This document shows, one piece after another, positions 41,770-55,821 of a stretch of DNA of 64,000 nucleotides. The DNA is from Rhizodiscina lignyota (Eukaryota), in the NCBI GenBank assembly GCA_010015805.1, contig ML978132.1, positions 682,001-746,000 of the forward strand, given 5' to 3'. A program made the translations under genes and the position numbers. Position 1 is the first letter of the stretch. Each line of letters begins with the position of its first letter. The notes beneath the pieces were generated by a model. The model did not search any database. It had not been told where the DNA came from and saw nothing but the letters and a program-made list of their open reading frames with translations.

Positions 41770-42084
41770 CGTTTTTGGCGTGTCTATGTGTGATTGCGGC
41801 GCGGCTCAAGAGATTGGCAGAATTCAAAAGGCATTGGAGTTGTTGTGTTGTGTTGAGATTGCTGGAGAGTAGTGACTTCCTCCTCCCCCTGGCGCCCAAG
41901 CGGAGCCGAAGCTCGCGCACCTATTTTAACTCGCAGCGCGGAACCTTTGCCCTGCACGAACTGCACGCACGACAGCAACGTCACCTCACCTCCCCCCTCT
42001 CCTCCTATCCTTTACCTCTCCCTTCCCTTCCCTCCCCTATCAGCCTCTCCTCCTTACTTCCGCCCTTCGGGGGCCCGCGCAGAA

Positions 42085-44201
42085 ATGGGGAACACTCAGT
42101 CCCGTTCGAGTGCCCCGCACTCGCCAGCGCAAGCAGCTCCACACCACAGCGCCTCGACATCCTCACAAGCACATGCCAGGGACTCGCAAACAGGCACCCA
42201 GAAGAGGGAGCCTCGTCGCCGCGAGAGCCTGCAAGCCCTCCAGTCTGGAATCGTGGGAGGCTCCGGCAAGGCGGCGCCTGTGGCACCTACGGCGAGCTTA
42301 GCCAGTGCGACCGGGACCGCCGAGTATAAATCGCATTCCAGCGGCGCTGGTGCGCGCGTGACTGCTCCAACGCCTGCGCAGAGCGCGACGACGAAGCCGG
42401 CTAGTATACAAAGTAACAAGAGCGGCCACCAGGGAACGAACACGCCGCATCTCAAGCCTACCGACGCGATTGCTGAGGAGAACACGATGGGCAACGATAA
42501 CAGCAAGCAGACTGCGTCATCCTCGCCATTGAGGGTGGGCGGCGAGAAAGATGCTGCGACAGCACCGATTCCAGCACAACAGGCGCCTCATGAGCCTGTT
42601 GGCCCGATGGATGTGCCAGCTTCAGCTATCGCAGAAGGCGTTGACGACTCTCCCATCTCGCCTGACCAATCCTATTCACTCCCTCCGAACTCGAACTTCT
42701 CGCGACCACCACGCCTACCCTTGCCTATCGAGCAAGAAGACTACACCCCCGGATCGCCTATAATCTCTTCTGCCGATCTCACAGAGCCGGTCGAGCCCGT
42801 TGATGGCGATGCTGAGGGAGTGACGAGGTCACGTTCGACGTTGAGCAGGCTGACAATGGACGAGGATGAGCCGGAAGATGACAATCAAGATGGCGGTTTG
42901 GTGGGAGAAGCAATTGGACCTGCAGTGCCAACGGTCATTGAATGGAGGCAAAGCGGCGAGAAGGTCTACGTGACCGGCACCTTTGCGGCGTGGGACCGTA
43001 AATACCGCCTCTACAAGGAGTAAGTATACTTCCTCGAGCTTGACTTGAGACCTTTCACGGACGGCTCGGGCGGCAGTGGTGTCTCGGGTGTGCTTGCTGA
43101 AGGTTGGCAACGAGCTGCAGCCATCCGATACACTTGCCCGTCTCTGCTATGTTACTTGCTCCCTCGTTGTGTCTACCCGCTTTTGCTCTGCATGATCCTG
43201 CCTCTGCGAATTTGAGCACAAACTCAACAAATTACGATGCTTGCCATGATCTTGGCCGCGTCGCTGTCAACTTCCCCCCCGCGTGTTTGCATCGCTCCTG
43301 CAGTGTGTTCATGGCTGACTCTGATAATCACAGTGGTCCGAGCAAGCATAAAGATGCGCTTTCCGCTACCATCAATCTCCAACCTGGCACACATCATCTC
43401 AAATTCATCGTGGATGGCGACATGCGTCTATCCGACGAGTTACCGACTGCAGTCGACTTTACCAACATTCTCGTCAACTATATCGAGGTCTCTCCAGATG
43501 ACCGCCCAGTTCCCGTGTCGGCGCACACAGCGACTGGTGCTCCTGTCATCCCGCCTGGCCAGACTGAGCCGATCGATATCAAGCCTTTGCCTGGTGCCGC
43601 TGGCAATGCGGGAGCTTCTGTGAAAGGCCCGCCGAAGAAACCGCAGTACAGAATCCCGCCGAACATTCGTCCGCCTCAAGTCCTTCCTCCGACCCCAGAG
43701 CTTGTCACTGTTCACGACCAAGAGCGTCCATCTTCTCAACAACAGCATACACCTTCGCAGCCACAGGCTCAACCGAAGACACCCGCGCTGCCGAAAGACA
43801 GTCGTATTCCCACAAAGTACTACCACAACGTCGTTCCCAAGTACCTGCTCGACCTCGATGATGCAGATGGCTCCACTGCTCAGCGCCGCGCAATGGCTGT
43901 GTCAGAGACGCTTCCTGCTCCTCCATCGCTGCCACTCTTCTTGTCCAAGTCCGTCTTGAACGGTGCAATGCCAATGAAGGACGACGCGAGCGTGCTGATC
44001 ATGCCGAACCACACGGTGCTCAATCATCTCGCCACGAGTAGCATTAGGCAGGGCGTGCTGGCGACAAGTGCAACGACAAGATACAAGCAGAAGGCAAGTT
44101 GAATAATCTCTTCCAGAATCCGTCTTTCAATTGTATTACTAACCTACAGCCAGTTCCTAACCACGATTCTGTACAAGCCGACCAAAGACGTCGGCGACTG
44201 A
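42085..44201 (+). CDS. GAL83: SNF1/AMPK beta subunit (Gal83/Sip2-like, 580 aa)
   Basis: MGNTQS myristoylation start; CBM48 IEWRQSGEKVYVTGTFAAW..HHLKFIVDG; ASC domain PPSLPLFL..PNHTVLNHLATSSI..TTRYKQKFLTTILYKP. Introns 43020-43333 and GC-AG 44094-44153. Confidence 0.95.
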
Positions 44202-45324
44202 GCCGCGCGCTCGCAAGGCTTCCTAACATCCCCGCATGGAAGCGCTTTGACTACATGCGTGACGAGGAAGAGTCCATTGGTCTTGATCTTGATATATGCT
44301 GCAATATGCAGTATGCAGCGGAGCTTTTTGACATGAAGGAGCTGGAGCACACCAAGTGGCGGGTGCCCCTGGAGGGCTGTCGTGCGACGAAGTGGTTCTG
44401 CAAGTACAATTTGCCGGAGGGTATTGAGAGGTTTGAGGCACGCGGACTGTTAGCTGCATGGCGGTGAGATTTGGTTACGCGCCCTTTCGGGTGATTGGAT
44501 AAAAGGGAGCAAGGGGCTCCCACGAGCATGAGGTTGCTCTTTCGATTCTTGTTTAATAGTTTGAGGGACAGGGAAATTGGTGAAATTGATGGTGATTGTG
44601 CAAATTTGAATATTTCTCTTGAAGAGGGGTGAATGAATTGATGCACGAGCTTGCAGTGGCCCCGTAACAGACCTTCCACGATTATATTGTCAATGGCTCA
44701 GAGTAAACTCGGCCCGAAAAAAGCCCCTATCTCCTCGACCGTTTTATCACTCCCAAGCAGATATTCAAAAGCTTTAATGACTCTAATTTCGCCTGGAGAA
44801 GAGTTGACTTGATGTTCTCACTTCCGACTCGATACACACAGCTCTTAGACGATGGTATCATTCAAGAGATAGCATGAAGCTTGGATGTTCAGGTGATCTT
44901 GAAGCCTCATCCTGCCGACCGTGAGGAGAACGACTACTACTCCGGAACTTCAAGTCTCCCACCAGGCCCACAAGATATGCACAGGTCTCTACTAACGGTC
45001 TCATACTCAGTGAAGTGCAAATCCCATTAATATCGAGACATTACAGCCTCGTCGTGCTGGGCGTTTATGCCGCGTCCCTGGTCTGATAAGGTGAGGCTGT
45101 GCGGCCGCCGCGGCTGTGCCAATCATTGTTGCCTTAAGAGAAGTCCATCTGGCTTCATCGATCAACTCAGGCGGCAAGTAAGTACAATTGAATTTGTATT
45201 TCAAAACATTCCGAAAGCTTCTTTTTAAATGGTTTGAGAGCGAATGCTCCAATCACGACAAGCCATTCTTCCATCCACTTTACATCTCGTCCTAGCATGC
45301 AAACGCTCATAACCACATTTCACA

Positions 45325-46986
45325 ATGACGACGTTATCAACCATCCTCGCAGTCCCAGATCTCTTATTCTCCATCGCCGACCATCTCGATCTTCTAACTA
45401 TCATATCCCTTCTCCGCACAAACAAAGAAACTAGTGCTAGCATCAAGCGTGTAGAGTTCCATGTCTGTCGCATAATCAGCAAGCAGTATCGAGAAACTCC
45501 ACAGAGTTCAATGGATTGGGCCAAAGAAATCGACCAGACAACCATTTACGGCCTCTCACAGCTACATTATATCCAATTTGCAACGGCTGTTTGCACTCTC
45601 ATAGAGCGAGTCCCCCAATCTCCCCCTTCTTCGGGCCACCTTTGCGATGTCTCGAAGTATATTACCCCTCCTCCCAACATGTTCGACAAGGGACCTTCCT
45701 GGAAGAGATATGGCGCTCTCCAACATATTATCCAGGCAATCAATCTCCTCCGGAGAATGTCGCGGGTAGCATCACACATCCCTAGATGTGTCCCGCATGG
45801 CAATCTTCCGTTTTGGCGAACTGCCCCTTGGAGTAATACTTCTAGTTTCTCACTGACAGACATCAAGAGACTTTATGAACGATTCTGGCAACACTTCCAG
45901 AGAGTAGATCCAGGCCTTGCATCTCGAACAAAATGCTCCGCCAACAAAATCCCGCGCACATTTCAATCCTTATCCCTAGAAACCCACAACTGTAGCGCCA
46001 ATGAGTCTCTCACTCCTTGCCATATCTGCAGTACTATCCGCTCACATATCACCCTCGCCGCCCGACTTGCTATCCTCCGCTCGGCACGACCGCCGGTCCT
46101 CTGCGCAGTCTACCGCATCCGCCATCTCCTCTCTGTCTACCTCAGCCGCCATCTAGCCACCGGCCGGTACATCAACTCCTGTTCTTGTGGACCAGCAACA
46201 GCCCCTGGTTCCTGGATCTTCAATACTGTGAGCCCGAGTAAGAGCCGCTTATACCGTTCATGTCGCTGCTCGCGCACGACGGCGTCGGCCGGTCTTGGGC
46301 TAGACACTGTACCGCTTTTCCCTCCCGCCTCTCTGCTCGGCCGCATGATGCCCCCCTTCACACTGTCGAAGCGATGGGATGACGGCTTTTGCAATTGTAA
46401 AGGAGCATCACTGCCGCATCTCCCGGGCCGTCACGAAGACTGCAAAGCGATCGCAGCACAGATACCCGCGCCGAGAAGCTTCAACCTCATGGATCCGTGG
46501 ACACTATGGTGGTTCTTGGACGGCGAGGAGATCGGACGGGGCGTGGATCTGCTATGGGAAGCATGGCATGAGCGAGACACATCTCGCCCCAGGGCGACCA
46601 CCACACGGAATGGCCTGGTTTCGAACACTCGCTTCGATTGGGACGAGCACCTCGAGCAAGGGGCTGAGCATGAATGCGGGCTGTACTGGCGCGAGACAGA
46701 CTCTGCTACTGGCGGCCCACTGACGGAGAATGGAATCAGGAAGCATCTGATTTGCGCACTTGTGGTGAGGTGCTTCGAGGCGTGGGGTGCGAAATCTAAT
46801 GTGGAGAAGGATGCGGAGAGGGCGTTGGGGTTGGTGCTCATGAAGGAGATTGGGTTGGAGGCGGTGGAGAGGAGACAGAAGGAGGAGGAGCACTATAAGA
46901 AATGCCTGCAATTCCACGCTGCTCTCGAGATATATAAGAAATTTGCTGGTACGGAAACCATATTACCTCAGAGCGAACATCAATAG
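45325..46986 (+). CDS. F-box-like orphan protein with Cys/His clusters (553 aa, intronless)
   Basis: N-terminal LAVPDLLFSIADHLDLLTIISLLRTNK resembles an F-box; internal PCHIC, SCSC, SCRC and FCNC motifs. Confidence 0.65.
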   Translation: MTTLSTILAVPDLLFSIADHLDLLTIISLLRTNKETSASIKRVEFHVCRIISKQYRETPQSSMDWAKEIDQTTIYGLSQLHYIQFATAVCTLIERVPQSPPSSGHLCDVSKYITPPPNMFDKGPSWKRYGALQHIIQAINLLRRMSRVASHIPRCVPHGNLPFWRTAPWSNTSSFSLTDIKRLYERFWQHFQRVDPGLASRTKCSANKIPRTFQSLSLETHNCSANESLTPCHICSTIRSHITLAARLAILRSARPPVLCAVYRIRHLLSVYLSRHLATGRYINSCSCGPATAPGSWIFNTVSPSKSRLYRSCRCSRTTASAGLGLDTVPLFPPASLLGRMMPPFTLSKRWDDGFCNCKGASLPHLPGRHEDCKAIAAQIPAPRSFNLMDPWTLWWFLDGEEIGRGVDLLWEAWHERDTSRPRATTTRNGLVSNTRFDWDEHLEQGAEHECGLYWRETDSATGGPLTENGIRKHLICALVVRCFEAWGAKSNVEKDAERALGLVLMKEIGLEAVERRQKEEEHYKKCLQFHAALEIYKKFAGTETILPQSEHQ

Positions 46987-47738: not shown

Positions 47739-50426
47739 CTACTCCTCCCGCAGGATCGTCATGCTATCGGCCGTGTATGCCGTATTCGAGCTAACGCTCA
47801 ATCTTTGGAGACTACTCGCCAATGGAGAGCTAGGTGTGTGCCGTTTCGACTTCCCCTTCAAGGCACGAAGAACTTTTGCATGATCTGGAAATAAGAAAAG
47901 AAAGAACGTCAGTCGGCTTCATCACTTCCTATGACTCGCGGAAACTAATATAGCTGCTAGGATCGGAGATCGGGGACATATAGGTGATGGGTATAGGGTA
48001 CAAGAAAATAAAACATAAGGGTTGTGCTTACGTAGACCGCAGGCATTACAGAGGGTGTTTGGCCCATTGGGTCCTCGCCACCATCGCGGAGATTCTGCGC
48101 GATTACAGCTATGACATCTTGTTACAAGATCTGACCGAGATTGGTGAACTCTTTTCGCGGATGATGAACTACTCCGGTCACCCTCACGTGCTCGTTTCTC
48201 CCCAGCCCTAGAATGATCGCGTCCTTGATCGCCGCCTTGCGGATTTCTGTACATCCAGAGCTTCTGATCGGCCATGGCCATCGTTGGATCCTCAGAATCC
48301 TGGATGTGGGTTGGGGTCGGTACGCGAGTGTCGTGGAATTCCTCCTCTCGGCGGCCTTCCCTTGGAAGTGGCGCCACTATATCAGAGTTAGTGTCACCAG
48401 ATCTTGGGTACGATGTTTCCCAGCCAGAAAGAGAGAATATCCGACGGCGTTCTCTGGGCAGTCGAGCTCTGAAATCATAGAGAAAAGGCGAGGCCCCGAA
48501 GTTTGTTTCGATGAGCGCATTGTCTTGCATGCCCACAGTTGGGAAGATCACACGCTCTGACCGGTCGGGGTAGAAGAAGAAGTCTGATCTGAAAAAGCCT
48601 GACGAAGTTAGCTTTACGCTAGTAAATGACTCAGAAAATGGTGCTTGAGCTACCAAGGTGTTGGCCATTCTTTGTAAAATAGCCGAGCTCCCCATAACGC
48701 CCACATCCAATTGTATCTCCGGTGGCAAAACATGGGCCATAGTCGTCTCCTTGGTTATCGTTGGAGTACAAACGGCCGTCATCTCCATGGTATGCAACTG
48801 AATCGTCTCTCCAGCCAGGCAGCTGGGCCAAATCAGCACCTCCCTCGGAGAGGCCGATACAAACAACCCTAGAAGCATGAGCAAATACCATCACAGTGAG
48901 TATAAATGATCGTACTCATTGATTTTGCCGCTAAAGAGTATCTTAATCTCAAAGTAAGAGAAATTGTCGATGCCTGTAGATAAAGGTTCTGTTGCTTGGA
49001 CAGACCATCCGACGGAAACGAGATCTTCGTAATCCGGGATTGTATCAATTGGTCCATTATAGCGGACACTGAGTCCGTCGGACAATATCCGCAGATTACT
49101 ATTGCAATGCATGGGGTTCCATTTCACTGGTGCTTTCAACATCAGTCTGACTCGAGAGTACTTGTTAATCACAACATGTGGATCGGGCGCTCCGAAATTT
49201 TCCTCGAGCATACTGTCTCCATCGTCATCCGTAGAGTCTCCAGGATGCTGCGGCTGGCGTCGCTTGTGAGGGTTACCGGAAGACTTCTTTGATCGGTCTT
49301 TGAGACGATTCTCAATCTTGCCCCGCCCTATCGGTTTATCCAAGGGTTGAATCCGTCTGTAAGTTTTCTCGCAGCGTTCACTTAATCAGTCAGCAAGACG
49401 TCTCAGCCGTACGAGCAGGCCTCACCATTCAACTTCTTGGTCCATCTCTGCATCATTCACGTACTCACAATACGGACATGCGTTCTTTGGCCCCGCCGAT
49501 GCGTCGTTGAAGATCATACTCATATGAACCCTTTGACCTGCGCGAAACCAGTGTTTCCAATTCAACTCTGGATTAATATCCCGCTTTGATTGGATATCTT
49601 GCATAGCAAATTCGCCGGCTTGAATTTTAAATGCTCCCTCTTCATCGAAGCGCTCTTCCAGAAGCCGCAAAAACCATTTTGAAGAGGTGATGAACGTCAA
49701 ATCAATGGCCATCATCTCTCCGCACGCGTCTGAAAAGTAGACAGGTTGCTGGCGCAAAACCTGAGGAGGAATGACTGTAGACATGGACAGATGTTTTGTG
49801 AGAGTCGTCAACAACTCTAGCAACTTTTGGCACTGGTGGGAGCCCTCGGACTTCATCTCCGCTACAGCTGCAACCAAGGTTGTTAGCATTTCTCCATGAA
49901 CGGTTGTCAGTTCGTTCGTGCGTTTGAGGTCATTGGCAAGCGTTGCAGTTGCAGTTCGAATGTCTGTCTGTACTTGGAAATTGCGTTGTATTTGGAATGC
50001 ATTCAGAAGGAGGTTGATCAGGTTTGTGTAGCTGTGAAGAGTGATTCGTAGCTCCTGGACGTCTTCTCGTCGGTACAGTTGCCATTGGACCTTCTTGACT
50101 GCGCCGCACCACCATTTCTCGGATTTCTCGGAGGTGAATGTAGATTCGAATTTTGAGTTCTTTGCTAAGAACGCGACAATGATCTCCTCACATTGTGAGG
50201 CCACGACCTTAATCGCATCCAGATGTCCCTTTAGTTCAGTCGGAATCTGCGGTATCTGAAGATCGTTGATGGTTTTGAGAGTCACTTCGAGGTTTTGGAG
50301 TTCCTCTCGGAGCTGGTGGAAATGAGCTCTCGACCCCGCGCTTGATTTGAGCGCCTGTCCGACATGGTGGACGAAATCAATACCAGCTATGAAATCCCCA
50401 ACGGAAACCCCGAAGGGTAAAACCAT
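47739..50426 (-). CDS. Multidomain protein: STAND/NLR-type fungal N-terminal helical domain + ubiquitin-like domain + C4 Zn ribbon + SPRY + GATA zinc finger (797 aa)
   Basis: Exons 50426-49426, 49380-48916, 48868-48654, 48598-48032, 47884-47739; all introns GT-AG, total 798 codons. Motifs FGVSVGDFIAG; QQPVYFSDACG..GQRVHMSMIF; CPYC-x13-CERC; YFEIKI..LPGW..YHGDDG..YGP..GDTIGCG..FTKNG..FPTVG..NFG; CHSC-x18-CNAC. Confidence 0.85.
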
Positions 50427-51501: not shown

Positions 51502-53867
51502 ATGTCTTCTTCAGGACCTACATCGCAGCCCAATACCTTCGGCAATCACCTTGGTCGCGTTAATTCTGTTGGTAGTAGCAGATCGAATGGAAGCTCGTCT
51601 CCGAAACAATACCGCATTGCGAACCTCAAAGGCTTCCTCCCTCTCAACGAGACGACCGGTGCCTCGGCGCTCTCAACGCGTGGCCAGAACCTTCCATATC
51701 TCCTCGGCACCGGCATAACGAGGAAGAATTCAGGGATATGGTACCACGAACATGAAGCTGAAAGCTCAAGCGTTGACTTGCGCAATGGACTGGGCATGAC
51801 AATGGGGTTTGGGATGCCAACGAGCTTACCACAGTCCGAGCGGCCGAGTCGCAGGGAGAGCTTTGACCGACCACATAGGCGTGGCCGAGAAGACGATGAA
51901 GGGAGCTTAGAAGACGGTGGCTTAGGGATGACAATGGGGTTTGGGAGAGACTCGTTGGGTGCTGCTCAGCGGCGAATGAGTTTCACACAGGACGAGAGGG
52001 CGCAGATCTTGATGGCACCGGAGATGAGAAGTCAACGTTTGATCGGGAACAGTAATCCGAGATATCGGTGGGAGCAATATTGGAAGACTGAAGAAGAGTT
52101 GAAAGCAATGAAAAAACCCATGTAAGTTGGTCCAAGGTTATCTTCACCGGAGCAGACGGATTGTGGCATAATAGCGTGGAGGTTGGCAAATCCAAATTGT
52201 CGTACTCGAAATGATTGAGTGCATCATCTCAGTGCCGACTAAACGGAACCAATGCGATCTAGCGGTAGTCGAACGTAATTTCATGGGTATGATACAGAAA
52301 GCTAACAAGCAAGAATAGACGAAAATACTACGAACGCAACAATGAGCTCATCCAGCAATACACTTTCATAGATAAGCTGCTCGACAGCTCACTGCCACAC
52401 GACCTTATTCAGGAGTATCACAACGCTGCGATTTCCGCATCCCTACCAAACATACCCGAGACCATCACCGAAGAAGCCGCCTCACCGCAGCCAATGCCGG
52501 GCACGCCAATATCGCCGAATGGTAAGCCACTTACATTCTACATTCTCACTTCATATGCACCTTTTGAGAAATATGGGAGTGTGGCCAAGATCGAGGTTTA
52601 CTCAATGTACGCCGGAGATATATGTTTGACAGGCAGGATTCATGGCATGCAGTAGTGCCGACTTGTTATTTTGAAACTTCAATGCTAATGTTATACGTGC
52701 ATTTCAAGGGAATCCACCAGATGGCCAAGCCCCGAAGATTAAACGTACGCCAAAGAATCTCTACAAACTTCCGCAGCCGAACCAGCAACCGAGCCCAGTG
52801 GAGGAAACGGAGAACACGCCATTGCTCAAAGCCAATCCAGACGACCTCGAAAATCCTTCACCGACCCCACCAATGCCAGACTGGGAACCAGAGGAAGAAG
52901 CAGACTCGAATAGTCGCATTGTGTCAGTTGCGATTTTCATCAATCTCGTGGCCAATACAGTATTGCTCGTACTGAAGATCATCGTTACATTGATGACTTC
53001 CTCAGTATCAGTCCTAGCATCCATGGTGGATGCGGCACTTGACTTCCTCAGTACTGCTATCGTATTTATTACAACACGTATCATCAGCCGGAAATCAGCC
53101 CATGATAAAGAGAAGTATCCGGTCGGAAGGCGAAGATTGGAGCCGATCGGCGTTCTTGTATTCTCCGTCATCATGGTTACCGCCTTTGTTCAAGTAGCAC
53201 TGGAAGGCTTGGGCAGATTGACGAGCGGCCGAAAAGAGGCAGTTCAACTAAGCCCCAGCGCCATTGCGATCATGTCTAGCACTGTTGTCATTAAAGGACT
53301 CTGCTGGCTGTGGTGCAAGGCCATCAAGAACTCTTCTGTCCAAGCACTGGCGCAGGACGCCATGACGGACGTGGTCTTCAACGTCTTCTCCATCATCTTC
53401 CCCTTGATAGGCTACTACGCAGACATCTGGTTCCTTGATCCGGTCGGTGGTATCCTGCTCTCCGGATACGTCATCCTCAACTGGTCATTTACCTGCTCCT
53501 TCCATATCTCCCAGCTCACCGGTGCCGCTGCGTCCGCCGATCAGCGGAACGTCCTGCTATATCTAACTATGCGTTTTGCAAAGACGATCAAGCATATTCA
53601 GGGATTGACTGCATATCATGCGGGAGATAAGCTGAACGTTGAAGTTGACGTGGTGCTGGATGAGAATATGAGTTTGAGGGACAGCCATGACTTGGGAGAG
53701 AGCTTGCAGTATGTGCTGGAGAGTGTACCGTATGTGGATCGGGCATTTGTGCATGCGGATTATGCTCGATACAACGTAAGTTCTGAATTGGCAGTTTCAA
53801 GCTTCAATGGATATAATGGGCTGACGTTGCACAGTTACCAAGTCACATGGAACAGCAAGAGGATTGA
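51502..53867 (+). CDS. Cation diffusion facilitator, Mn-CDF (MTP8-11-like) transporter (640 aa)
   Basis: Exons 51502-52121, 52319-52521, 52709-53775, 53835-53867. SMVDAALD (TM2 DxxxD), YPVGRRRLEPIG, QDAMTD (TM5 DxxxD), C-terminal HDLGESLQ..VDRAFVHAD. Confidence 0.92.
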
Positions 53868-54634: not shown

Positions 54635-55321
54635 TCAAGCTTCAGTAGCTTCGGTATCAACATCACTGGAGTCTGATCCATCAGAAGCAACATAACTGCT
54701 CGCCGAACTCACGTTGTCGTAGTAGGTAGCATCTGCAGTTAGTAGGAGCCATTGTATGCACGTGTGGGTAACACAAGGGAGCCTTACGGGTTGTTCCATC
54801 TCATCGAACTTCTGCGCTGCAGAGCCGAGTGGGGAGTGCGTCCCATGACCGCGCCGCACGACGTACCGAACAGCAATGTCCCGAAGGCAGTTGATGTACT
54901 CGATGCGGGCGATGACCGCATTGCTAAGCTTCTCCCATGCCTCAACCAACTCCAGCGCGGTCGCGCGAGTGATCGGCTCCTGAGACGCGACAATTGGGCC
55001 TTCGTGCCTCACGACGGGAGTGATGTATCCGGTGCCGTTTTCGTACATCTGAGCATATATGTTGTAGACAAGGCCATCCGTCTCGAGCACATCTGGAATT
55101 TCGAGTATGAGAAGGCTCTGCTTCATCGTGACATGTTTGTACGGTGTGGATTGGTTGAAGTAAACAGGTACGTTCACAACTTCTGTCTGTTGCTCGCCAT
55201 CGATGTATTCGCGGAGCTTCACTTCGCTGGTGTCTCCAAACTCGGCGAGCTGGAACCAAATATCGATCGCGCGGTCGCTAGGGAAGTTGTAGTCGAGAAA
55301 TTCTTCCAGCGGAGTCGACAT
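54635..55321 (-). CDS. Hypothetical protein (228 aa), acidic
   Basis: Uninterrupted ORF with coding-like composition, ATG in ACGATG context after a pyrimidine-rich leader. No recognised domain. Confidence 0.6.
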   Translation of the reverse strand: MSTPLEEFLDYNFPSDRAIDIWFQLAEFGDTSEVKLREYIDGEQQTEVVNVPVYFNQSTPYKHVTMKQSLLILEIPDVLETDGLVYNIYAQMYENGTGYITPVVRHEGPIVASQEPITRATALELVEAWEKLSNAVIARIEYINCLRDIAVRYVVRRGHGTHSPLGSAAQKFDEMEQPVRLPCVTHTCIQWLLLTADATYYDNVSSASSYVASDGSDSSDVDTEATEA

Positions 55322-55821
55322 CGTGAGCGAGGATGATGGAAGGTCCTGAGATTTCGACGCAGGAGTTGTTGAGAGTAAGTGTGCGAAGAGAGCGGAAATC
55401 GAAGAGTAGGGAGGGTGTTGGCAAAGGAAGAAGCTCCAGGAAGCTTGTATATCGTAATGAGTAGCTCTATTCACTCGAGACTGCGCGACCGGAACGTCGA
55501 CTAGAGGGCAAAACCGAACGTCTCTGCGCGCTTCACTGAAATAAAGCTCGGAAGATACCAGACTGCCGTTAATTACCCATTAAATCCAAGGAATTTGGTT
55601 GCATGACGGACGTTTTCGTGTGAACTGCGGAAATCGTAAGTCGGAAGCACCCACTTGTGTCACTATTGACCACCTGGAATCACTGGCCGAATTTGGAAGT
55701 TTCTTGAGGTCTGGACCCCGCGATCATAACACATATCGCATGCCTTGAGACATCCTCTTGGAAAGAAAGCGATACCGTGAACAGACGCGGTGGTCTCCGC
55801 TTGGTGCGTTGCTTGTTTCGC

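Follow-up and report, generated by a model that had tools for sequence, protein, structure and literature searches.

A five-exon gene of Rhizodiscina lignyota places SPRY and GATA modules behind the conserved core of an uncharacterised ascomycete family

Why a single fungal gene should couple a helical domain of the kind found at the N-terminus of immune receptors to a ubiquitin-like domain, a zinc ribbon, a SPRY domain and a GATA finger is not obvious. The question is raised by a minus-strand gene at positions 47,739 to 50,426 of a 64,000-nucleotide stretch of DNA from Rhizodiscina lignyota (assembly GCA_010015805.1, contig ML978132.1, positions 682,001 to 746,000 of the forward strand), to which we refer as the window. 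The locus is an intact single five-exon ascomycete gene with a product of 797 amino acids. It is a member, lacking a nucleoside triphosphatase (NTPase) domain, of a large uncharacterised family of Pezizomycotina (Ascomycota), in which a conserved core is combined with interchangeable tails. The core consists of a helical head, a long hairpin, a ubiquitin-like domain (ULD) of the ULD_2 type, a zinc ribbon and a short strand motif, beyond which the tail differs by lineage.

The gene is easily overlooked, since the stop-to-stop list of open reading frames (ORFs) presents it only as five disjoint minus-strand frames between 47739 and 50432 (Table 1). When the minus strand is read directly and the exons are joined, the 2394 spliced nucleotides form a frame of 797 codons followed by TAG, with no internal stop. 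The original prediction, made from the bare sequence, had proposed that five exons splice into one intact frame that the ORF list displays only in fragments, and both its coordinates and its length were reproduced. All four introns begin with GT and end with AG, and each has a CTRAY-like branch site 5' of its acceptor. The ATG at 50426 is the right start codon, because no columns of the family are better conserved than F5, G6, S8, G10 and D11: each is kept in 90% or more of 143 aligned sequences, all five are present in the window, and the conservation of the core peaks at this extreme N-terminus. Any separation of the modules into distinct genes would cut a domain, be it the ribbon (exons 1 and 2), the SPRY domain (exons 2 and 3, exons 3 and 4) or the tail of the GATA finger (exons 4 and 5). 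Moreover, exon 2 runs without interruption from the latter half of the ribbon via the family motif into the first SPRY strands, in a single open frame, and in exon 4 the end of the SPRY domain shares one frame with the GATA finger. A search for sequencing runs that contain a 2,961-bp stretch at the locus listed no RNA run and a single DNA-like run (X1), in which one contig of 69,778 nt spans the stretch with no difference and no joint; this contig, which is possibly the assembly's own source, supports the contiguity of the locus and says nothing on splicing.

The introns differ in the evidence that backs them. Introns 2 and 3 are validated by homology, because the spliced SPRY domain aligns collinearly across both with P0151, a fungal CLTH and SPRY protein of the RanBPM/Vid30 type; the alignment is unbroken over residues 418-616, with 36% identity and E 1e-27, and four other SPRY proteins align similarly. 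Intron 4 is backed by its splice signals alone. Its retention would add 36 codons up to a stop at 47922-47924 and leave the Cys ligands of the GATA finger intact, and the basic tail of the finger depends on its removal. Intron 1 is best considered together with the family to which the gene belongs.

Relatives were sought with exon 1 among 1.84 billion cluster representatives, which yielded matches to 1259 clusters at E<=0.001, to 349 at E<=1e-10 and to 17 at E<=1e-30 (best 1.3e-76); the best 150 were listed. The nearest relative of the core, a read-through prediction on a contig of 1.7 kb, is 43% identical. Ten relatives whose records we consulted belong to Dothideomycetes, Leotiomycetes, Lecanoromycetes and Sordariomycetes; the records call them hypothetical, 'Ubiquitin-like domain-containing' or 'Fungal N-terminal domain-containing', and Atlas clusters bearing the same names score 0.95-0.97. 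The family, defined by PF17111 together with PF22893, exists in databases at the domain level only. A Pfam scan covered 88 of the 150 listed relatives, namely ranks 1-50 except the 142-residue P0034 and 39 longer proteins from ranks 51-150. ULD_2 (PF22893) is present in every one of them. PigL_N (PF17111) is matched at E<=0.001 in 46 (best 48.9 bits), with 30 at or above the cut-off, SesA in four (one above the cut-off), and HeLo lies above the cut-off in one.

Behind this shared core the C-termini diverge. Thirteen of the 88 relatives carry a further C-terminal domain, drawn from ten Pfam families, and nine proteins from eight families reach the cut-off. The tails comprise Myb (P0007, and weakly P0017 and P0044), Clr5 (P0019), Forkhead (P0033), EVH1_PP4R3 (P0029 and P0084), HET (P0059), Hpt (P0061, weak), PHD (P0097, weak), the PAP1 C-terminal domain (P0127), RGS (P0138) and MIT (P0140). 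Such a tabulation of what follows the N-terminal and ubiquitin-like domains had been suggested together with the gene model, and the tails are swapped as had been anticipated. The five-module combination itself, which had not been recognised from the sequence, has no counterpart in the scan, since a SPRY or GATA tail is found in 0 of the 88 relatives. One further tail deserves mention on its own. P0059 (470 residues) has a partial HET domain at its C-terminal end (profile positions 1-82 of 146), so that a single chain would bear two death-associated domains; its model is probably truncated.

Intron 1 lies in the codon for the third Cys of the ribbon, and if it is retained the frame reads a Trp and then TGA. 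It is backed by homology because the ribbon that it splits is complete (CxxC..CxxC) in 56 of the 150 best relatives, as counted by script. In 52 full-length relatives the consensus of this region is CPxC..CxxCGxxYxR, with the four Cys invariant or at least 90% conserved, and the spliced sequence of the window matches it across the junction and beyond. The TTAAG acceptor was chosen because it restores the third Cys and the family consensus. Two other solutions were rejected: the donor TG/GTGAGG leads to TGA when joined to the stronger-looking TTACAG acceptor at 49357, and an upstream GTACGT donor with the TTACAG acceptor would delete the ribbon spacer. Among the remaining relatives, 23 of 150 terminate exactly at the Trp expected from a retained intron 1, and 16 have the Trp followed by a further tail, which mostly looks like intron read-through, at least P0082 and P0133 being exceptions; in the other 55 the region is absent or unmatched by the search pattern. 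Intron 1 is thus ancient and shared by many members of the family, whose public gene models are in many cases cut short at it. Retention of the intron could also yield a genuine short isoform.

Downstream of the ribbon the core ends with the strand motif [FY]xR[VI]x[IVL]; among the 56 relatives whose ribbon is complete, 36 possess it, at a distance of 37-71 residues from the ribbon. In the window the motif reads YSRVRL, 70 residues after the ribbon, and the SPRY domain begins a few residues later. An AlphaFold2 (AF2) model of the Forkhead-bearing P0033 (mean predicted local distance difference test, pLDDT, 72.1) has a confident ribbon strand (352-362) and a confident motif strand (403-413); the blocks of the motif strand average pLDDT 81 and 94, and the flanking stretches are below 50 and disordered. 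We take this as a sign that the motif strand may pack back on the core. As a separate observation, the family ribbon (CxxC, spacer, CxxCG[LM]x[YF]xR) bears a faint likeness to a GATA finger, and a PDB profile search gave GATA-2 at a non-significant E of 0.44. If this likeness were real, the gene would hold two GATA-like zinc modules.

It is conceivable that such a gene has no function of its own and is a young or decaying chimera, in which a core gene captured a fragment encoding SPRY and GATA by rearrangement and the long frame is a passing stage, or else that only the 336-residue product with intron 1 retained is made. The immediate stop upon retention of intron 1 would fit this explanation, as would the modest identity of the closest core relative (43%, as noted above), the lack of the same tail in all 88 scanned relatives and the lack of any ULD_2-bearing match to exon 2 or exon 3 in the word-indexed searches. 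However, all 797 codons are open and the four introns have canonical signals. The zinc ligands of both the ribbon and the GATA finger are intact, as is the core of the SPRY domain, and SPRY joins the family motif within a few residues, at a clean in-frame junction inside one exon. We regard a functionless chimera, or a gene that makes the short product alone, as very unlikely.

What, then, is the core? Pfam was run exon by exon, with matches listed to E<=10. On exon 1 it identifies ULD_2 with 44.8 bits against a cut-off of 24.5 (E 1.4e-11). The AF2 model of exon 1, built with 143 aligned sequences, has a mean pLDDT of 83.8. It predicts four helices in the head (9-27, 34-55, 63-97 and 105-118), a long hairpin of two helices (120-194 and 197-216) and a beta-grasp domain (229-304) whose blocks reach pLDDT 95-97. 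Foldseek relates the latter to ubiquitin-fold domains, namely the Ras-binding domain (RBD) of B-Raf, ISG15, NEDD8 and UBX, with a probability of about 1.0, E about 0.05 and a template modelling (TM) score normalised to the target of up to 0.67. No ULD match reaches E<=0.001, and the likeness stands at the level of the fold. The head was also compared with 48,161 chains in the VIA fold scan, which is independent of Foldseek. MLKL (4btf_A) is found there with Z 9.4, a root-mean-square deviation (rmsd) of 2.6 and 100 aligned residues, and the other chains in the top 30 include MLKL 6ux8_A (Z 9.3), the Sw-5b SD (9.1), the NRG1 CC-R (8.2) and MLA13 (7.9). The predicted fold of the head is consistent with an MLKL/HeLo four-helix bundle (4HB), at Z values that are common among helical bundles.

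This placement is of interest owing to what is known of the domain family. As described in passages of PMC9815663, PF17111 (PigL_N, formerly Helo_like_N) is the HeLo-like domain found at the N-termini of fungal NOD-like receptors (NLRs) and in amyloid-activated executioners, and Wojciechowski et al. 2022 aligned PF17111 with the 4HB executioner domain of MLKL (PMC9815663, in the same part). The N-terminal helix of HeLo and HELL domains is essential for membrane targeting and death, according to the relevant section of a review (PMC12881547). The assignment of the head to the HeLo-like/SesA group, commonly paired with a fungal ubiquitin-like domain, was part of the original prediction and agrees with the occurrence of ULD_2 throughout the scanned relatives. 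Its further statement that no NTPase is present holds as well, as NACHT and NB-ARC are unmatched in all five exons, as are WD40, ANK, TPR and HEAT repeats.

The tail of the protein is made of two recognisable modules. SPRY is matched by Pfam on exon 3 with 31.5 bits against a cut-off of 26.3 (E 2.2e-7), and the best PDB matches of this exon are the SPRY domains of RanBP9 (8.9e-14) and RanBP10 (1.3e-13); the SPRY strands in exon 4 give a weak collinear match to residues 172-202 of RanBP10. Together with the collinear alignment to the CLTH and SPRY protein described above, these PDB matches bear out the RanBP9/10 type that had been assigned to the domain. The GATA finger, likewise foreseen, lies above the Pfam cut-off (33.5 bits against 26.8, E 3.2e-8, profile positions 1-28 of 36). 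Its four Cys are intact, its core reads TLCNACG and its loop spans 18 residues; among solved structures GATA transcription factor 18 (8j48_D, E 2.4e-6) is the best match.

The nature of the SPRY domain raises the possibility that the protein is an adaptor of the ubiquitin/proteasome system or of the GID/CTLH complex, with SPRY binding a substrate or a GID partner, the ULD and the ribbon docking to the ubiquitin machinery and the head serving as a scaffold or oligomeriser. The nearest relatives of the SPRY domain are indeed RanBP9/10 and fungal CLTH and SPRY proteins, and the ubiquitin-like fold is predicted with confidence. In addition, the succession of a ULD and a zinc module recalls the Ras-binding and cysteine-rich domains (RBD-CRD), for which Foldseek gives a weak row (7jhp_C, rmsd 10.7). 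However, LisH, CTLH and CRA, through which RanBP9/Gid1 is anchored in its complex, have no Pfam match at E<=10 in any exon, and exon 4 yields GATA alone, whereas the database relatives of the SPRY domain, P0151 and P0152, carry PF10607 (CLTH/CRA). Furthermore, it is the core rather than the tail that is conserved across the family, and the ubiquitin-fold likenesses stay at fold level, with none at E<=0.001. An adaptor role therefore seems very unlikely to us. A word-indexed search with exon 3, which is a weak search, returned five SPRY proteins, with ULD_2 in none.

A more appealing scenario, which we put forward tentatively and short of calling it probable, is that the protein is an MLKL-like sensor-executioner without an NTPase, in which the tail acts as bait or regulator. 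By analogy, the head would be a membrane-attacking module of the MLKL/HeLo type, with the conserved N-terminal helix as its working part. The hairpin, the ULD, the ribbon and the strand might keep the head inactive, much as the brace and the pseudokinase restrain MLKL. The tail would serve as the input, having been copied, as bait or regulator, from a conserved hub of the cell such as the GID/CTLH complex or a GATA factor. Once the tail is bound, modified or cleaved, the head could be freed to oligomerise and attack membranes, and the outcome would be regulated cell death or a stress alarm. We favour a bait or regulatory-sensor role because the tails are isolated interaction or DNA-binding modules from conserved regulators that lack their usual partner domains. 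SPRY comes without LisH, CTLH or CRA, the PAP1 redox domain lacks a recognised bZIP, MIT is found with no ATPase, and EVH1 is separated from the remainder of PP4R3. The original prediction had offered an immune or allorecognition sensor with integrated baits or, alternatively, a conditionally released transcription factor. The anatomy and the swapped-tail pattern have stood, and autoinhibition, membrane attack and the bait role are inferred.

The main rival is the second of these options, a GATA transcription factor that is conditionally released or sequestered. The finger would be the output, the core would tether, mask or destabilise the protein until a signal arrives, SPRY would recruit a partner, and the family would share a control module. 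In favour of this reading, the finger lies above the Pfam cut-off, with its Cys ligands intact and with a basic tail once spliced, and Myb, Forkhead, Clr5, the PAP1 C-terminal domain and PHD in the relatives are nuclear or DNA-related modules. The ordinary genomic surroundings also suit a transcription factor. On the other hand, the RGS, MIT, EVH1_PP4R3, Hpt and HET tails of other relatives are not outputs of transcription factors, and conservation in the family peaks at the extreme N-terminus of the head and not in the tail. We identified neither a cleavage site nor a transmembrane anchor nor any known processing motif in the protein, and the superfamily of the head is known for membrane attack, as presented in parts of PMC9815663 and PMC12881547. 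We consider a released GATA factor unlikely on balance, if well worth keeping in mind.

Several observations weigh against the sensor-executioner scenario and account for our caution. The head of the window protein does not reach the curated cut-off of PF17111, PF17107 or PF14479, whereas that of PF17111 is reached by 30 of the 88 relatives: PigL_N scores 18.9 bits (cut-off 27.2, E 0.0011) and SesA 16.2 bits (cut-off 26.3, E 0.012). Sequence and profile searches of the PDB with the head retrieved no HeLo or MLKL chain at E<=10. In the VIA scan the top match is IncA, with Z 11.2, and values of Z below about 13 are reached by helical bundles through their common arrangement. The tails do not all conform either. 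Several are DNA-binding domains, which would fit a family of transcription factors equally well, the HET domain of P0059 is itself a death domain and fits a simple bait picture poorly, and most long relatives end in 100-400 residues in which Pfam recognises no domain. A word-indexed search of longer proteins with exon 1 or exon 2, which is a weak search, retrieved no orthologue that shares the tail. Finally, the gene lies in a housekeeping neighbourhood, and no NLR, HET or amyloid-motif gene is found near the locus.

Comparison with known systems helps to delimit what the protein is. It is not an NLR, since it has neither an NTPase nor repeats, and the absence of LisH, CTLH and CRA shows that it is not an orthologue of RanBP9/Gid1. 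Nor is it a GATA factor of the typical kind. Fungal NLRs with HeLo-like or SesA N-termini have the head family (PF17111/PF17107) in common with it, but the window protein has no NACHT, NB-ARC or repeats. With RanBP9, RanBP10 and Gid1 (Vid30) it shares the type of SPRY domain, which is here fused directly behind the family core, without LisH/CTLH/CRA. With GATA factors that have an 18-residue loop it shares the finger, although here the finger is single, lies far at the C-terminus and sits on a chassis that is not that of a transcription factor. The closest likeness is to the uncharacterised Ascomycota proteins with PF17111 and PF22893, which have the N-terminal motif, the head, ULD_2, the ribbon and the strand motif in common with it, and from which it differs in its SPRY and GATA tail.

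Other systems offer further parallels. HET-S and HELLP likewise have a head of the HeLo superfamily without an NTPase and are activated in trans or by their own C-terminus, as described in parts of PMC12881547 and PMC9815663. However, the window protein has no amyloid motif and no adjacent NLR gene and possesses a ULD, a ribbon, SPRY and GATA instead, and its head lacks a PDB sequence match to HeLo. MLKL (4HB, brace, pseudokinase) has the same order of a helical head, a long helical connector and a C-terminal regulatory domain, without an NTPase. The regulatory part is a pseudokinase there, whereas it is a ULD, a ribbon and a variable tail here, and the likeness of the heads is at fold level, within the range of helical bundles. 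Plant NLRs with integrated decoys join a signalling chassis to unrelated, lineage-specific domains copied from regulators, as described in part in PMC12258605. The chassis of the window protein differs in having no nucleotide-binding switch, and its bait role is putative.

The genes around the locus are an AMPK beta-subunit gene, a 557-amino-acid ORF, a cation diffusion facilitator (CDF) cation-efflux transporter, a second ORF of 314 amino acids and a major facilitator superfamily (MFS) transporter. Tblastn detected no second family member within the 64-kb window, and there are no flanking repeats that could explain a recent fusion. The 557-amino-acid ORF (45313-46986, plus strand) has no Pfam match, is convergent with the gene and lies about 750 bp from its stop. 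The 314-amino-acid ORF (54635-55579, minus strand), also without a Pfam match, lies between the CDF and MFS transporter genes. A direct repeat of 29 nt (51786-51814 and 51918-51946, plus strand; 86% identical, spacing 132 nt) sits in the N-terminal region of the neighbour with the Cation_efflux domain and encodes a duplicated Gly/Met-rich peptide.

Table 1. Features of the gene and its surroundings, in window positions (aa, amino acids)
Feature	Position	Strand	Remarks
Exon 1	49426..50426	-	aa 1-333 + 2 nt: ATG 50426-50424, head, hairpin, ULD_2, first ribbon CxxC
Intron 1	49381..49425	-	45 nt, phase 2, GTGAGG..TTAAG
Exon 2	48916..49380	-	second ribbon half, charged linker, family motif, N-terminal part of SPRY
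Intron 2	48869-48915	-	47 nt, inside SPRY
Exon 3	48654..48868	-	SPRY core
Intron 3	48599-48653	-	55 nt, inside SPRY
Exon 4	48032..48598	-	C-terminal SPRY strands, low-complexity linker of ~105 aa, GATA finger
Intron 4	47885..48031	-	147 nt, GTAAGC .. ACTGAC .. pyrimidine run .. TTTCCAG
Exon 5	47739..47884	-	basic tail after GATA finger, Ser-rich end, stop TAG 47739-47741
Four-helix head, aa 1-118	50073..50426	-	HeLo-like / PigL_N (PF17111) and SesA related
Long helical hairpin, aa 120-216	49779..50069	-	between head and ULD, brace-like position, AF2
ULD_2 (PF22893), aa 225-307	49506..49754	-	Pfam, AF2, Foldseek
Zinc ribbon CxxC-x13-CxxC, aa 317-337	49371..49478	-	split by intron 1 in third Cys codon
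Family motif [FY]xR[VI]x[IVL], YSRVRL, aa 408-413	49143..49160	-	family alignment
SPRY, aa 418-616	48432..49130	-	across introns 2 and 3
GATA finger CX2CX18CX2C, aa 722-749	48033..48116	-	basic tail continues into exon 5
ORF, 336 aa	49422-50432	-	ORF list
ORF, 164 aa	48891-49385	-	ORF list
ORF, 94 aa	48631-48915	-	ORF list
ORF, 322 aa	47922-48890	-	ORF list
ORF, 59 aa	47739-47918	-	ORF list
AMPK beta-subunit gene	41857-44102	+	AMPK1_CBM split over two ORFs by an intron, then AMPKBI

Beyond this one gene, the conserved phase-2 intron that reads as a Trp and a stop when retained exposes a systematic annotation error, because of which many members of the family are cut short in public databases, with their tails concealed. 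In the literature outside supplements we found no account of a HeLo-like head combined with a ubiquitin-like domain, a ribbon and a variable tail, although such architectures could appear in the S1 tables of PMC9815663; the word ubiquitin is absent from the main text of the 2025 review on fungal cell death (PMC12881547). The known HeLo-like heads of fungi sit on NLRs or belong to the amyloid-activated partners of NLRs, and here one stands in a different and very large architecture without a nucleotide switch. It is tempting, if rather doubtful at present, to regard the family as a large and so far undescribed class of NTPase-less sensors for immunity or surveillance in fungi, in which the head is latched by the ULD, the ribbon and the returning strand and armed by an integrated bait derived from a cellular hub. 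The baits in such a class would be, at the same low confidence, the SPRY of the GID/CTLH complex and GATA in the present gene, and elsewhere Myb, Forkhead, the Yap1/PAP1 redox domain, RGS, Hpt, MIT and the EVH1 of PP4R3. The class would be partly hidden because gene predictors cut its members at the conserved intron with its Trp and stop, and the set of tails would amount to a catalogue of the targets of fungal pathogens or parasites. If the head is indeed an executioner, the family would be a fungal counterpart of single-chain death switches of the MLKL type, its tails would point to what is guarded, and what fungal immune receptors sense would become directly testable.

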